Shown piece after piece: positions 4,188-13,132 of a stretch of DNA of 21,685 bases. Position numbers and translations under genes: made by a program. Numbering within the stretch: position 1 is the first letter of the stretch; each line of letters begins with the position of its first letter. This DNA comes from Nautiliaceae bacterium (lineage in GTDB: Bacteria > Campylobacterota > Campylobacteria > Campylobacterales > Nautiliaceae). The notes beneath the pieces were generated by a model. The model searched no databases. It saw only the letters and a list, made by a program, of their open reading frames with translations, and was not told where the DNA came from. Location of the stretch: contig JBDONT010000025.1 of the NCBI GenBank assembly GCA_039831155.1, forward strand, positions 1 through 21,685. Direction: 5' to 3'.

Positions 4188-4206
4188 TCAATAAAAAAGG
4201 TTTAAA

Positions 4207-4533
4207 ATGCCTGATTTAGGTTTTAGTGAAATACTTTTTATCGCTATAATTGCAATAATCGTTCTAGGACCGGAAAAACTCCCCGATGCTATGGTACAAA
4301 TCGGGAGATTTATAGGAAAAATAAAAAGAATGTGGAAAGATGCAACAGCCGATATTAGAAAAGAGATAGAACTTGAAGAGATGAAAGAAGAGATGAAAAA
4401 ATATAAAGAAGAACTTGAAAAGCTCCAAAGAAAAGTAAATGATGATGTAGGAGAAATAAACAAAGGTTTAACAAGTCTTGACGATTTAACGACAATTGGC
4501 AATAAAAGAGACTTTTCGGATATGATAAAGTAA
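4207..4533 (+). CDS. tatB: Sec-independent protein translocase TatB
   Basis: DLGFSEILFIAIIAIIVLGPEKLP transmembrane segment and hinge, amphipathic helix, charged tail. Confidence 0.88.
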   Translation: MPDLGFSEILFIAIIAIIVLGPEKLPDAMVQIGRFIGKIKRMWKDATADIRKEIELEEMKEEMKKYKEELEKLQRKVNDDVGEINKGLTSLDDLTTIGNKRDFSDMIK

Positions 4534-4537
4534 AAAG

Positions 4538-5410
4538 ATGGGATTTGTAGTTAAAGAATTTGATGTAAATGATGTTAAATTAATAGATTTTTTGATAAAA
4601 GAACTCGGCTTTTCTATGAGAGAAGCAAAAAGAGCGATTGACAGAGGGAGAATTAGTGTAAATGATAAAAGAGTAACTCAAAAAGGTGCCAGGGTCAGTG
4701 GAAAATTAAAATGTATAGTATTTGAACCCAACGGATACGGATTAAAGCCAATTTTTGAAACTACCCATTTTGGTGTGTTTAATAAGCCAAGCGGGGTTGC
4801 GGTACATCCTAAAAAACTTGCAAATACTAAGAGTTTACTTGATGATGTAAGGAATTTATGGGGAAGTGAAGCAAACTTAGTCCATCGTCTTGATAAAGAA
4901 ACAAGCGGACTTATTATTGCAAGTAAAAATAAATTTGCAGAGAGTTATTTAAAAGTGGCGTTTCAAAATAAAGATGTTAAGAAAAAATATTTAGCATTGG
5001 TAAAAGGGCATTTAGACAAAGAATATACTATTAAAAAACCAATAGCAGTAAATAAAGATGAAAATATAAAAGTAAAAGTTATTATTTCAGATGAAGGTAA
5101 AGAGGCAACGACAATAATAAAACCTATAAAGCAAACAGGAGAGAACACATTAGTTGAGTGTATTCCTCTAACCGGGCGTCAACATCAAATAAGAATACAT
5201 CTATTTAGCATAGGATATCCAATTGTCGGAGACCCTTTATACGGGGTTGATAACGATTTTGCCAATAGATATTTAAATAAACTGGTAGATGAAAAAGAGC
5301 GTATAGCAAAAACAGGAGCAAAAAGACTAATGCTTCACGCTTATTATTTAGAATTTGAATTTATGAATAATAAATATATATTGACAAATAGAGAATTTGA
5401 AAAAAATTAA
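4538..5410 (+). CDS. RluA-family pseudouridine synthase with N-terminal S4-like domain
   Basis: NKPSGVAVHP, HRLDKETSGL catalytic Asp motif, TGRQHQIRIH, PIVGDPLYG, LMLHA. Confidence 0.93.
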   Translation: MGFVVKEFDVNDVKLIDFLIKELGFSMREAKRAIDRGRISVNDKRVTQKGARVSGKLKCIVFEPNGYGLKPIFETTHFGVFNKPSGVAVHPKKLANTKSLLDDVRNLWGSEANLVHRLDKETSGLIIASKNKFAESYLKVAFQNKDVKKKYLALVKGHLDKEYTIKKPIAVNKDENIKVKVIISDEGKEATTIIKPIKQTGENTLVECIPLTGRQHQIRIHLFSIGYPIVGDPLYGVDNDFANRYLNKLVDEKERIAKTGAKRLMLHAYYLEFEFMNNKYILTNREFEKN

Positions 5411-5444
5411 GCCAATATTAAGCTTTTTTTTATATAATTCTTAC

Positions 5445-5506
5445 TCAATTTCCCCTCCTTAAAAGTTTTAAAACCTCCTCTAAATATTAGGCCTTTTGGC
5501 CTTTTA
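5445..5506 (+). ncRNA. Candidate small RNA with two C/U-rich anti-Shine-Dalgarno motifs
   Basis: TATAAT at 5433-5438; TCCCCTCCTT (5451-5460) and ACCTCCTC (5473-5480); intrinsic terminator at 5489-5505; no ORF on this strand. Confidence 0.5.
5489..5505 (+). terminator. Intrinsic terminator
   Basis: AGGCC-TTTT-GGCCT hairpin followed by TTTATT on the plus strand. Confidence 0.6.
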
Positions 5507-5551
5507 TTAAAAATAAAATAAGTGTCAGTCACTATAATTGATAATTTTAAA

Positions 5552-5627
5552 TGGCTCCGGCGAGAGGACTCGAACCTCTGACCCGACGGTTAACAGCCGT
5601 CTGCTCTACCGACTGAGCTACGCCGGA
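5552..5627 (-). tRNA. tRNA-Asn (anticodon GTT)
   Basis: Minus strand reads TCCGGCG-TAGCTCAGTCGGTAGAGCA-GACGG CT GTT AA CCGTC-GGGTC-AGAGGTTCGAGTCCTCT-CGCCGGA-G-CCA, 76 nt with encoded CCA; TGATATAAT promoter at 5647-5639. Confidence 0.98.
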
Positions 5628-5734: not shown

Positions 5735-6133
5735 ATGAATTGTAAAAACGTTGAAAATCTCAAAAAAACGGAACTTAAAATAGCATTGTTGCTTGAAGAA
5801 AAACATCTTTTAAGCGCAAAAGAGTTGCAGGTTATTTTAGAAGTGGATAAAGCTACCATATACAGAAACATTAAAAACATGCTTGAAAAACAGACAATAA
5901 GGGAGATTAAAAACAGCGAAGGTGTGGGTTTTTACGAACTAAACTGCAAAATCCACAACCCCATTCACTCTCATTTCGAGTGTAAAATCTGTAAAAAAAT
6001 CTTTTGTTTAAAACCCTTTAACGCCGAAGATATTTTGAGCCTTTCAAATTACAGTAAATATGAAATAGAGGAAATTGAAGTTAAATTTAAAGGAATATGC
6101 GATGAATGTAAAGAAATTAAAAGTAAAAAGTAA
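5735..6133 (+). CDS. Fur-family transcriptional regulator, probably Zur
   Basis: VDKATIYRN helix, HSHFECKIC and GICDEC CxxC pairs; first gene of a metal ABC operon. Confidence 0.85.
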   Translation: MNCKNVENLKKTELKIALLLEEKHLLSAKELQVILEVDKATIYRNIKNMLEKQTIREIKNSEGVGFYELNCKIHNPIHSHFECKICKKIFCLKPFNAEDILSLSNYSKYEIEEIEVKFKGICDECKEIKSKK

Positions 6134-6905
6134 AAAATTAAAAGTTTTATTAGTAATGTTTTTATTAACTCCGCTTTTTGCGTTGAATATAAGCGTAACG
6201 ATACTGCCGCAAAAAGGCGTTGTTAAGGCAATAGGAGGAGATAAGGTAAACGTAAATGTAATGGTCCCTCCCGGTAATTCACCGGCAACATACACCCCGA
6301 ACTTCAAGCAGCTAAAAGAACTAAAAAATTCGGACATCTATTTTACGATTGGAGTACCGTTTGATAAAAAATACCTCTCAAAAATCAAAGAAATCAATCC
6401 AAACATAAAAATCGTCTATTTCGGTAGTTTCATAAAAACCACAAACAACCCTCATATCTGGCTTAGCCCCGCACTTTTACAGCTTGAAGCAAAAGTCGTA
6501 TTGGATACATTAATTACAAACGATTCGAAAAACAAAACATACTACCTGAATAATTACAAACACTATATTAAAACGCTTGCAAACCTTGAAGTAAAAGGGC
6601 TTGAAACCATCCGCCAAAAAGCCTTTATTACGTTTCATCCGTCATTTTACTATTTCGCAAAAGATTTTCACATTAATCAAATTGCAATCCAAAAAGAAGG
6701 AAAAAGCCCAAGTTTCGCATATCTCGCAAAAATTATAAAATTAGCAAAAAAAGAAAACGTAAAAACGGTAATAATTTCGCCCGAATTTCCGACTAAATAC
6801 GCAAAAATCGTAGCGGCTAAAATAGGTGCGAAAGTTGCGGTTATTTCACCTCTAAACCCTAAACCGGAAAATACGATTAATCAACTGATAGAGGCCCTTA
6901 AATGA
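6102..6905 (+). CDS. znuA: Metal ABC transporter solute-binding protein (ZnuA/TroA, cluster A-I)
   Basis: VMVPPGNSPATYTP, NPHIWLSP, FITFHPSFYYFA, EGKSPS. Start placed at ATG 6102 (AAGGA at 6090-6094) rather than TTG 6075. Confidence 0.8.
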   Translation: MNVKKLKVKSKKLKVLLVMFLLTPLFALNISVTILPQKGVVKAIGGDKVNVNVMVPPGNSPATYTPNFKQLKELKNSDIYFTIGVPFDKKYLSKIKEINPNIKIVYFGSFIKTTNNPHIWLSPALLQLEAKVVLDTLITNDSKNKTYYLNNYKHYIKTLANLEVKGLETIRQKAFITFHPSFYYFAKDFHINQIAIQKEGKSPSFAYLAKIIKLAKKENVKTVIISPEFPTKYAKIVAAKIGAKVAVISPLNPKPENTINQLIEALK

Positions 6906-7624
6906 AAGCGCTTGAAGTTAAAAACCTATATTTTAAATACGAAAAAGAAACCGTCCTTGAAAACATAAATTTCGATTTAAACGACAAAGAGTTTATGGCG
7001 ATTATCGGTCCTAACGGGGGAGGTAAAACCACCCTTCTTAAACTGATACTGGGATTTTTAAAACCCTTTAAGGGTGAAATTAAAATATACTCAAAACCGC
7101 CTCATGAGATTAGCGAAATTATAGGATACGTTCCCCAACATACAAACTTCTCACTCGACATTCCCATTACGGTGTTTGATATAGTTTTGCAGGGAAGGCT
7201 TAAAAAAGGTAAGTTTTTTTATGATAAAAAAGACAAAGAAAAAGCCGAAGAAGTCCTTAAAACACTGAAAATCGAAGAGTTTAAAAACAGAAAAATAAAA
7301 GACCTCTCGGGCGGCCAAAGACAAAAAGTGTTGATTGCAAGAGCTCTTGTAAGCGAACCTAAAATTGTCATAATGGACGAACCGACAAGTGCAATTGACC
7401 CTACGGGACAAAAAGAAATCTTAGACCTCATCGAAAGTCTTGACATTACAAGGGTGGTGGTAAGCCACGATATAAAAATACTTTTAAGAAAGGTGGATAA
7501 AATCGCCTTCATTAACAAAAAAGCGGTAATTCACGAAGGACCGAAACTCAATATTCCAAAAGACAAACATTTCTGCGAAGTGGAGCTAATCGAATTTTTA
7601 AAGGATGAATCGTGTGGGATTTAA
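6902..7624 (+). CDS. znuC: Metal ABC transporter ATP-binding protein
   Basis: GPNGGGKT Walker A, IGYVPQ, LSGGQRQ signature, MDEPT Walker B, VSHD, C-terminal HFCEVEL. Confidence 0.88.
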   Translation: MKALEVKNLYFKYEKETVLENINFDLNDKEFMAIIGPNGGGKTTLLKLILGFLKPFKGEIKIYSKPPHEISEIIGYVPQHTNFSLDIPITVFDIVLQGRLKKGKFFYDKKDKEKAEEVLKTLKIEEFKNRKIKDLSGGQRQKVLIARALVSEPKIVIMDEPTSAIDPTGQKEILDLIESLDITRVVVSHDIKILLRKVDKIAFINKKAVIHEGPKLNIPKDKHFCEVELIEFLKDESCGI

Positions 7625-12816: not shown

Positions 12817-13062
12817 TTATAAAACAAATTTAATATTTTTATGTTCTTGAAGTCTTTTAAAAAATTCGTTTCTTTCTTCTTCACTTGTTACATAAGCTTC
12901 AAACTTTTGAGAATGGTATTTTCCGTGTGAGTTATTGTCTTCTATTTTACACTCTTGATTGGTAATACACTCTTTTACGGCTTCTCTCATTTTCTCTTTA
13001 TCTTCTCCGATAATTCTAAATCCCCACATTCTTGGATATTCTATTTGTTCCTTTTTAGACAT
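12817..13062 (-). CDS. DUF493 / HP0495 (YbeD-like) family protein
   Basis: IEYPRMWGFRIIG, SHGKYHS, C-terminal IKFVL; strong SD AAGGAGG; TGATATAAT at 13104-13096. Confidence 0.85.
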   Translation of the reverse strand: MSKKEQIEYPRMWGFRIIGEDKEKMREAVKECITNQECKIEDNNSHGKYHSQKFEAYVTSEEERNEFFKRLQEHKNIKFVL

Positions 13063-13132
13063 AATCCCCTCCTTTAAACTTAAAATTTAATTAAGATTAT
13101 ATCAAATTCTTAAGGAAAAGTTAAGAAGCGGT

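Follow-up and report, generated by a model that had tools for sequence, protein, structure and literature searches.

A candidate small RNA gene specific to the Nautiliaceae, with a long seed antisense to translation start regions

The locus and its predicted promoter

The DNA analysed here is a stretch of 21,685 nucleotides (nt), hereafter the window, from contig JBDONT010000025.1 of a Nautiliaceae genome (assembly GCA_039831155.1), and the element in question is a short unit (5406-5506, plus strand), delimited by sequence inspection and by comparison with relatives, which has the parts of a gene for a small RNA (sRNA). It lies largely in the 141-bp gap between a gene for an RluA-family pseudouridine synthase (4538..5410, plus strand; 290 amino acids (aa), with matches to the PseudoU_synth_2 and S4 domains) and a convergent tRNA-Asn(GTT) gene outside the unit (5552..5627, minus strand), which both tRNA prediction and Rfam recognise. 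From 5' to 3', the unit begins with two ATTAAG hexamers (5406-5411 and 5417-5422) separated by a 5-nt spacer, CCAAT, the first of them overlapping the stop codon TAA of the rluA-like gene (5408-5410). An alignment of relatives places a -10 box, TATAAT (5433..5438), 10 nt past the second hexamer, with no -35 hexamer. The predicted RNA, of ~61 nt (5446..5506), would start at 5446 ±1, that is, 7-8 nt after the -10 box, where conservation begins, and would end in the T run past a hairpin. Within it lie an invariant 21-mer, ATTTCCCCTCCTTAAAAGTTT (5448..5468), here called the seed, which includes a first C-rich motif, TCCCCTCCTT (5451-5460); a second, accessory motif, ACCTCCTC (5473..5480), which also resembles an anti-Shine-Dalgarno (anti-SD) sequence and is kept in most relatives; and an intrinsic terminator (5489..5506), called by a terminator scan and backed by covariation, in which the hairpin AGGCC-TTTT-GGCCT (5489-5502) is followed by TTTTATT. 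This is the sole terminator-like site that the scan gives for the plus strand of the gap and, because the rluA-like gene has no terminator of its own ahead of the unit, it probably shares that of the sRNA. No ATG or GTG was seen inside 5446-5506. A preliminary description of this DNA, made from the letters and their open reading frames (ORFs), had already pointed to TTAAG at 5407-5411 and 5418-5422, to the TATAAT, to both C-rich motifs, to the hairpin and to the flanks, and all of these were found where it had put them.

The preliminary description had read the first part of the unit as a phased repeat of TTAAG. The repeat is indeed present, but it is better read as two ATTAAG hexamers with a 5-nt spacer, which is the published box of the activator HsrA/HP1043. 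According to the reports on Helicobacter pylori, this protein activates transcription and recognises the consensus ttTAAG-5bp-tTTAAg, in which the bases TAAG and TTAA are critical (PMC5253667, PMC8345958); in its target promoters the box stands in place of the -35, and its targets in chromatin immunoprecipitation sequencing (ChIP-seq) are described as including tRNAs, rRNAs, ribosomal proteins, energy metabolism and the sRNA cncR1 (PMC5253667). The box in the window has the two hexamers, the 5-bp spacer and the critical bases and, ending 10 nt ahead of TATAAT with no -35 called, it matches the HsrA-type layout. In the 17 aligned sequences (the window and 16 relatives), TTAAG and TTAA are invariant, and the distance from box to -10 is 10 nt in 16 of them and 11 nt in the remaining one (G017; labels beginning with G, C and L denote genomes, contigs and loci). 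The -10 itself mostly reads TATAAT, with TATACT in G007 and TAAAAT in G016 and G045.

An orthologue of HsrA/CosR is encoded in the same genome (222 aa, L061:1078-1743), matching the PDB entry 8uvx at E 4.8e-75 and HP1043 (2hqr) at E 1.2e-67, with a DNA-binding half that is nearly identical to that of 8uvx in the printed alignment. When a strict pattern (the box, 9-11 nt and TAnAnT) was scanned over the 1.53-Mb genome, ten sites were found, all of them in promoter positions. Nine fall outside any predicted ORF, and the tenth lies 13 nt before tRNA-Leu, within a doubtful 92-aa frame on the opposite strand. Apart from the sRNA itself, the sites precede genes for tRNA-Phe, tRNA-Leu (in both cases with the module 11-13 nt before the tRNA), rplM, a PEP-utilising enzyme, a ferredoxin, TusA-DsrE, CbiM and ThiC, and a TP_methylase (tetrapyrrole methylase) gene that lies 330 nt downstream of its site; these nine sites are spread over contigs C13, C22, C32, C35, C38 (two), C40 and C41 (two). 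As far as sequence motifs can tell, these sites make up a draft HsrA/CosR regulon of a vent Nautiliaceae genome that parallels the ChIP-seq list from H. pylori, and with them the range of the box goes beyond gastric Helicobacter and takes in deep-branching relatives from vents, tRNA promoters included.

A related arrangement was seen in G121, a genome from another family of the order, where an HsrA-box promoter precedes a tRNA gene (L058, 1500-1560). It reads TATAAT-TTCAACT-CAACTTCCCC and then the tRNA, and is very similar to the TATAAT-N7-CAATTTCCCC of the sRNA, a possible hint of an origin of the sRNA from a duplicated tRNA promoter and leader.

Are these motifs a promoter in their own right? 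There may be no independent gene here, the element being the 3' untranslated region (UTR) and terminator of the rluA-like mRNA, perhaps released as a processed 3' fragment, with the promoter motifs conserved for other reasons. The element always follows the rluA-like gene, with no separate terminator upstream of it, a contig from an RNA library (discussed below) bridges both, and a sigma-70 scan, which demands a -35, listed no promoter at the sRNA unit, all of which fits such an explanation. HsrA-type promoters, however, are by nature devoid of a -35. In four relatives (G019, G007, G011 and G008), moreover, 20-60 unconserved nt separate the stop codon from the box, and conservation returns exactly at TTTAAG; the distances from box to -10 and from -10 to seed are fixed; and the same module stands before tRNA-Phe and tRNA-Leu in this genome and before a tRNA in another family. 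The absence of an independent gene is hence judged quite unlikely, and even a 3'-derived RNA would still bear the same seed and could act alike.

Conservation, strand and phyletic range

DNA similarity to the rluA-like gene, searched in 40 relatives, often continues past its stop codon. The sequence past the stop was extracted from 20 loci, of which one is on a contig that ends inside the gene and another on a contig that ends 35 nt past the stop; 18 are left, window included, and the sRNA unit is present at 17 of them, the locus without it being that of G022. Counted in another way, of the 17 relatives with at least 300 nt of sequence past the stop codon, 16 have the unit 3' of the rluA-like gene, a recurrence well beyond what chance would give. 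The 21-nt block 5448-5468 is identical in the 17 aligned sequences, for a flanking rluA-like protein that is only 76-97% identical among relatives. The -10 is followed by 7 freely varying nt (6 in one genome), up to CAATTT, where the sequence becomes fixed; in the block CAATTTCCCCTCCTTAAAAGTTT that comes after the variable nt, the inner 21 nt are the invariant ones. The sequence past the terminator varies, as does the downstream neighbour, which can be a near tRNA-Asn, a distant one (~330-370 nt away in G001 and G004) or another gene (in G015 and G021), and the predicted length of the sRNA goes from 44 to 68 nt in relatives. Of the two anti-SD motifs on which the preliminary description had relied, the first is therefore invariant (17/17), but the second, with the core (A)CCTCC, is usual rather than universal, as it is absent in G016 and G045 and degenerate or weakened in G017 and G002. 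On a tree of HtrA, G016 and G045 are sisters of G009, which has no sRNA, a pattern that may reflect stepwise decay of the sRNA in one lineage.

A covariance model built from the 17 sequences gives the window copy 88.7 bits, as the one match at E<=0.01 in this genome. Full matches (76-108 bits) were found in 22 of 30 Nautiliaceae genomes, once per genome, with any further match in those genomes at 37 bits or below (E>=0.001). The tally at E<=0.01 rises to 24 of 30 by counting G020, where a partial match lies at the start of a contig, and G023, whose doubtful 38-bit match has neither the C-rich seed nor the box and whose rluA-like locus is not assembled. No covariance match was obtained in the remaining six family genomes (G006, G044, G022, G009, G010 and G014), and no strong one in 140 sampled genomes from 25 other families of the order. 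Four weak matches from outside the family (32-36 bits) were discarded; the two inspected are an HsrA-box tRNA promoter and an unrelated sequence. The exact 21-mer, in turn, occurs at 18 loci among 185,579 species genomes, 16 of them titled Nautiliaceae or Nautiliales. The other two, in metagenome-assembled genomes (MAGs) titled Cellvibrio and Robiginitalea, were also discarded, with 18-19 bits and neither promoter nor terminator. Both searches together indicate that the element is family-specific and single-copy. As an aside, the two MAGs (L091 395-425 and L104 395-425) have in common a 24-nt string with the seed in otherwise unrelated sequence, which could be due to chance, to a shared mobile or synthetic sequence or to bin contamination.

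A comparison with Rfam, which the preliminary description had suggested, assigned the RNA to no family: with Rfam 15 at the gathering threshold, only the tRNA passes in the window. The best overlap at E<=10 is HPnc0260 (32 bits against a threshold of 59, E 0.14), and it was rejected because the bases that carry the score are those of the T-arm of the tRNA, read in antisense. Likewise, a description of this RNA was not found in the literature on small RNAs of Nautilia, Nautiliaceae or Caminibacter or on the Nautilia profundicola transcriptome, including the portions consulted of PMC3847290 and PMC10092268, supplements excluded.

The terminator bears on the strand. In an alignment of 24 matches, fitted to the structure model and thus favouring a result of covariation, all five stem pairs show compensatory changes, 93.5% of the cells are paired and none of 500 shuffles reaches the observed covariation score; the T run follows the hairpin on the plus strand only. 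The 21-mer is identical in 23 of the 24 rows of this alignment, the exception being the doubtful match of G023. In the RNA of the window, the seed is predicted to be unpaired in both the minimum-free-energy fold and the centroid, and most of it is left free in 75-nt folds of the relatives as well; in some of these folds, its 3' A/U end is paired with downstream flank. The comparison of synteny and covariation proposed in the preliminary description thus came out in its favour, with a unit that is kept after the rluA-like gene, a stem that covaries and a seed that does not change.

The preliminary description had left room for an alternative on the other strand, in which the same bases would be a strong ribosome-binding site and a TTG driving a 13-aa micro-ORF or a leader. 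In that case, the locus would be one more start region with ACTTTTAAGGAG, a 12-mer complementary to the seed. The minus strand does read AACTTTTAAGGAGGGGAAATTG, a textbook start region for this genome, the window has the 13-codon frame, and the genome encodes CsrA, a protein that binds GGA motifs. Against this, the TTG is lost in three genomes (G016, G011 and G045), and the frame has 2 codons in 7 of the 17 aligned sequences and otherwise 6-13 codons that specify unrelated peptides, so that the 13-aa ORF was rejected; the residues common to these peptides are forced by TATAAT and TTAAG on the opposite strand. Furthermore, the T run is on the plus strand, and genuine start regions of htrA and clpB vary, whereas the copy at the sRNA locus is invariant over 21 nt. 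A functional minus strand is accordingly very improbable. Even less is to be said for an element that acts as DNA (a protein-binding site or an operator) with no RNA product, which has in its favour that TTAAAAGTTTTAA on the plus strand of the window is a near-palindrome and that a conserved palindrome, GTGTCAGTCAC, lies 16 nt past the T run. A covarying hairpin followed by a T run is, nonetheless, characteristic of a terminator that is transcribed, the palindrome does not extend to the C-rich half of the invariant block, and a DNA site would leave the complementarity to start regions elsewhere in the genome unexplained; we consider this explanation barely credible.

Complementarity to start regions and the predicted targets

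What would such an RNA pair with? A sequence search gave 41 short look-alikes of the element in the genome, ten of which, including the eight best, were examined: nine correspond to a ribosome-binding site and its start codon in reverse complement, and the tenth (on C41) resembles the element only in the A/U-rich stretch that follows the seed. Predicted duplexes between the 43-nt unpaired part of the sRNA and positions -35 to +10 of 1531 genes have a median energy of -10.2 kcal/mol, and 37 start regions reach -20 kcal/mol. At the top are those of a 160-aa protein with a Nitro_FeMo-Co domain (-35.8 kcal/mol), an SPFH/Band-7 protein (-32.9) and HtrA (-29.8); also within the top 13 are those of a YfdX protein and GroEL (-25.5 each), ClpB (-24.9) and GrpE (-24.7), and lower down comes a J-domain-like protein, named by eye from its N-terminal sequence (-23.0). 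When the 24-nt seed is used by itself, only 19 of the 1531 start regions reach -19 kcal/mol. The target singled out in the preliminary description, the DUF493 gene (an 81-aa ORF with its start region at 13060..13095, minus strand), does have the expected complement, AAGGAGGGGA, at 13074-13065 (minus strand), 3 nt ahead of its ATG, and is a plausible target. It is, however, a moderate site (-21.0 kcal/mol, ~29th of 1531), and those of htrA, clpB and the Nitro_FeMo-Co gene are longer and conserved.

The pairing path leads from an A/U-rich flank upstream of the SD sequence, through GGAGG(GG), to the AU of the start codon, which means that the 21-mer is antisense not only to the SD core but to an entire initiation region, from its upstream flank through the SD and the spacer to the beginning of the start codon. 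The corresponding 12-mer, ACTTTTAAGGAG, occurs six times in this genome, once as the sRNA gene itself and four times in start regions among the 1531; being in only 4 of 1531, it is not a general consensus of start regions. The tail of the 16S rRNA does not account for it either. The 16S 3' end of the window's own genome is unassembled, and genomes of the same genus and family stood in for it; in those of the same genus it reads ...GGATCACCTCCTTTCAAG and pairs only with AAGGAGG. A 16S tail ending in ...CACCTCCTTTCAAG therefore cannot explain the ACUUUU flank of the target sites, and the possibility of ACUUUU being a general translational enhancer was rejected on the same two grounds, the rarity of the 12-mer in start regions and the lack of pairing with the 16S tail.

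Across the family, the 12-mer goes together with the sRNA. The 22 genomes with a full sRNA match hold 117 sites (2-8 each, the gene's own antisense copy included), and the six sRNA-less genomes hold 2 (0, 0, 0, 0, 1 and 1), compared with 23 and 9 sites, respectively, for a reversed control word. The 12-mer lies on start regions of htrA, clpB, a Nitro_FeMo-Co-domain gene and HtpX-like, YfdX and DUF308 genes. In five genomes, 19 sites were fetched; a start codon follows 18 of them at a distance of 5-6 nt, and 17 of these 18 open an ORF of at least 60 aa. The genes are four clpB, two DUF308 (HdeD-type), two YfdX and one M48/HtpX-like, together with genes that encode a phage capsid protein, a CMD/AhpD-like protein, FeS_assembly_P, a DeoC aldolase, a beta-propeller lipoprotein and four proteins without a Pfam match. 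At the clpB, DUF308, YfdX and HtpX-like sites, and at several more, the distance from an upstream -10 box to the site is just ~12-16 nt. G023, whose sRNA status was treated as unknown, has six target 12-mers, on htrA, clpB, an HtpX-like gene and other genes.

Orthologous start regions were then compared using the 24-nt seed and a threshold of -19 kcal/mol, with G023 and G020 (the partial copy) placed on the sRNA side. The threshold is reached by the Nitro_FeMo-Co gene in 18 of 19 genomes with the sRNA and in none of four without it, by htrA in 17 of 22 and none of six, and by clpB in 21 of 22 and none of four; in G022 and G009, both devoid of the sRNA, the clpB leader is still site-like, although its flank has undergone a deletion or substitution. 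The lineages without the sRNA thus also lack the long target sites, which constitutes a natural loss experiment.

Two observations on these genes may be added. Prophage-like genes carry the exact 12-mer at their starts, namely a Phage_cap_E capsid gene and a neighbour without a Pfam match (G000 C24:497-1684; L174 and L175 in G001), so that the sRNA may also damp a resident prophage. And in the complete genome G004, the clpB frame is open for ~160-163 aa only, compared with ~870 aa in relatives (L222/L177), owing perhaps to a frameshift, to the gene being a pseudogene or to an error in sequencing.

The same data bear on a further explanation, in which the plus-strand RNA is real and works in another way, either as a mimic of the 16S anti-SD that competes for strong SD sites throughout the genome or as a decoy for a C/U-binding protein, with no defined regulon. 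The RNA has two CCUCC-type motifs, the second of them resembling the 16S tail, its promoter is in the same class as those of tRNAs and ribosomal proteins, 37 of the 1531 start regions reach -20 kcal/mol with the single-stranded part, and groEL retains its G-rich SD in two sRNA-less genomes. However, the invariant part reaches well past the anti-SD, into AAAAGUUU and AUUU, the matching 12-mer is as rare in this genome as stated above and follows the sRNA from genome to genome (2-8 against 0-1), and the motif that is more similar to 16S is precisely the dispensable one. A general mimic or decoy is, on this balance, unlikely.

Interpretation and related systems

Taken together, the anatomy of the unit, its conservation as a single copy within one family, its complementarity to start regions and the co-occurrence of these with the sRNA make it likely, in our opinion, that 5446-5506 (plus strand) is the gene of an undescribed Nautiliaceae-specific sRNA that would repress the translation of a small regulon and be expressed from its own HsrA-type promoter. 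This agrees with the central proposal of the preliminary description, a plus-strand, lineage-specific, trans-acting anti-SD sRNA of ~60 nt, which the promoter spacing, the invariant unpaired seed, the covarying terminator, the family range and the target words support at the level of sequence. The sRNA would be transcribed from the -10 and the HsrA/CosR-type box that overlaps the rluA-like stop codon, and would end at the intrinsic terminator, probably common to the rluA-like gene. Its first ~23 nt would remain single-stranded and be the exact antisense of initiation regions of the kind AAAACUUUUAAGGAGGGGAAAU...; a duplex of 16-24 nt, reaching from the 5' flank of the SD into the start codon, would block the binding of the 30S subunit. 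Since this pairing would cover nearly the whole of a very short 5' UTR and the start codon, it should prevent initiation, and the expected outcome is repression. The repressed regulon would comprise htrA, clpB and the Nitro_FeMo-Co-domain gene, joined in some lineages by HtpX-like, YfdX and DUF308/HdeD-like genes and possibly by groEL and grpE, so that it is most likely a regulon of proteostasis and envelope stress, and the sRNA most likely a lineage-specific translational repressor. No Hfq gene was found in this genome (96.7% complete), for which reason the long and strong pairing would take the place of that chaperone.

Several points weigh against this proposal. A discrete ~60-nt species that starts near 5446 on the plus strand is a prediction from sequence, and the control of its promoter by HsrA is deduced from the motif and the orthologue by analogy with H. 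pylori. Two metatranscriptome runs from one vent sample contain the region as assembled contigs, one of which runs unbroken and without differences over 4200-5579 (from the rluA-like gene through the element and into the tRNA), and another covers 4200-5455, with no cover at 5456-5550 in run X2. Neither strand nor ends nor abundance can be read from such contigs, and DNA may be present in RNA libraries; the contigs fit read-through as well as overlapping transcripts and are neutral with regard to an independent transcript. On the side of the targets, the gene starts rest on 1533 genes called with a simple heuristic of ORF plus SD, and groEL and grpE give a mixed result as conserved targets: groEL does not discriminate (23 of 23 orthologues with the sRNA and 3 of 5 without it reach -19 kcal/mol), its G-rich SD being conserved and kept also in two sRNA-less genomes, and grpE discriminates weakly (19 of 22 and none of 5, with two at -18.2). 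The site is also missing in spite of the sRNA in the Nitro_FeMo-Co gene of G007 and in htrA of G015, G021, G024 and G020. As for the losses, the sRNA-less genomes fall at four places on the single-gene HtrA tree (the basal pair G010 and G014, G044 with G022, G009, and G006) and, the genomes being related, they amount to about four independent contrasts rather than 28. Four of the six are only 70-83% complete, and only in G022 and G009 can the syntenic locus itself be seen to lack the unit.

Different known systems have one or another of these properties. The sRNA RepG of H. pylori, as presented in PMC8295292, is C/U-rich and pairs with a G-repeat in the leader of tlpB, and the RNA proposed here would be similar to it in being Hfq-independent, in belonging to the same bacterial class, in directing a C/U-rich unpaired stretch to a G-rich leader and in controlling translation (here, by prediction). 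Unlike it, the present RNA has no sequence or Rfam relationship with RepG and would cover the SD and start codon of several genes, RepG facing a variable homopolymer. The RepG seed is also said to sit in the loop of the terminator, and here the seed is the free 5' end.

A second parallel is provided by sRNAs of the RsaE/RoxS or 'UCCC-motif' type, in which several short C-rich unpaired motifs pair with the SD regions of several mRNAs. A C-rich unpaired motif opposed to several SD regions, and an RNA conserved across the genera of one lineage, are common to both. On the other hand, RsaE/RoxS, described as C-rich anti-SD sRNAs of the Firmicutes (PMC6435200), belong to another phylum, and the RNA of the window has no Rfam match to them (E up to 10), a single 21-nt seed, and predicted targets in proteostasis as opposed to central metabolism. 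Lacking an Rfam match, it is a member of neither RepG nor RsaE/RoxS; its proposed mode of action is that of the C/U-rich Hfq-independent sRNAs known from Campylobacterota and of the Firmicutes sRNAs with C-rich anti-SD motifs, yet it is separate from them.

With regard to the promoter, the closest case is CncR1 of H. pylori, an sRNA whose promoter is reported to be bound by HP1043/HsrA (PMC5253667). In both, the promoter has a TTTAAG-N5-TTTAAG box replacing the -35; the sequence and targets are unrelated, and the binding of HsrA to the promoter in the window is presumed from the motif and the orthologue. The genomic position recalls instead the sRNAs of the DapZ and MicL type, Hfq-dependent RNAs that come from the 3' end of a coding gene, with their own promoter and a terminator common to that mRNA. 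Here too, the predicted promoter reaches into the upstream ORF, whose stop codon is part of the box, and the RNA would end at the same terminator as that mRNA, but there is no Hfq gene found and the pairing would be much longer.

A further comparison is that with the RNA thermometers that act in cis (ROSE, fourU), which hide the SD and start codon of heat-shock or protease genes in a duplex that weakens with temperature. This leads to a more speculative version of the proposal, in which the sRNA would be a trans-acting RNA thermometer and growth governor of the proteostasis regulon in moderate thermophiles. During balanced growth, an HsrA-type promoter, of the class of tRNA and ribosomal-protein promoters, would supply the sRNA, which would mask the starts of htrA, clpB, HtpX-like, YfdX, DUF308 and possibly groEL and grpE; upon heat shock, the A/U-rich intermolecular duplex would melt and translation would be released at once, with no new transcription. 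At 65 °C, the computed net duplex energy is ~-13 to -18 kcal/mol, and at 85 °C it has weakened to ~-4 to -9 kcal/mol; in the model, tight binding becomes weak binding over temperatures at which such organisms would be under stress. Unlike ROSE and fourU, which are intramolecular hairpins of the mRNA, the masking strand would be a separate RNA, and its control by temperature comes from computation. We hold this version to be tentative and, on the whole, rather doubtful.

Irrespective of it, promoter class, seed, terminator, phyletic range and a coherent target set add up to an unusually complete computational case, and the predicted targets are a small and coherent set of genes for periplasmic and cytosolic protein quality control. 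It offers a system for asking two questions: how do bacteria without a detected Hfq gene regulate through sRNAs with long seeds? And how do vent thermophiles tune the synthesis of chaperones and proteases?

Some minor observations concern the surroundings of the unit. The palindrome GTGTCAGTCAC mentioned above lies at 5522-5532, and variants of it (GTGTCTGTCAC, GTGACTGACAC and others) occupy the corresponding position in ~11 of 17 relatives, also when the tRNA is distant. The motif GTG[AT]CNG[AT]CAC has only three occurrences in the genome, all three intergenic, and the palindrome may be an operator or part of a minus-strand promoter. Further downstream in the window (5735-7624), a gene for a Fur-family regulator, probably Zur, is followed by those for ZnuA and an ABC ATPase. 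With a TTG at 6075 as its listed start, the ZnuA frame shares 59 nt with the regulator gene, which ends at 6133, and its true start is therefore probably further in.

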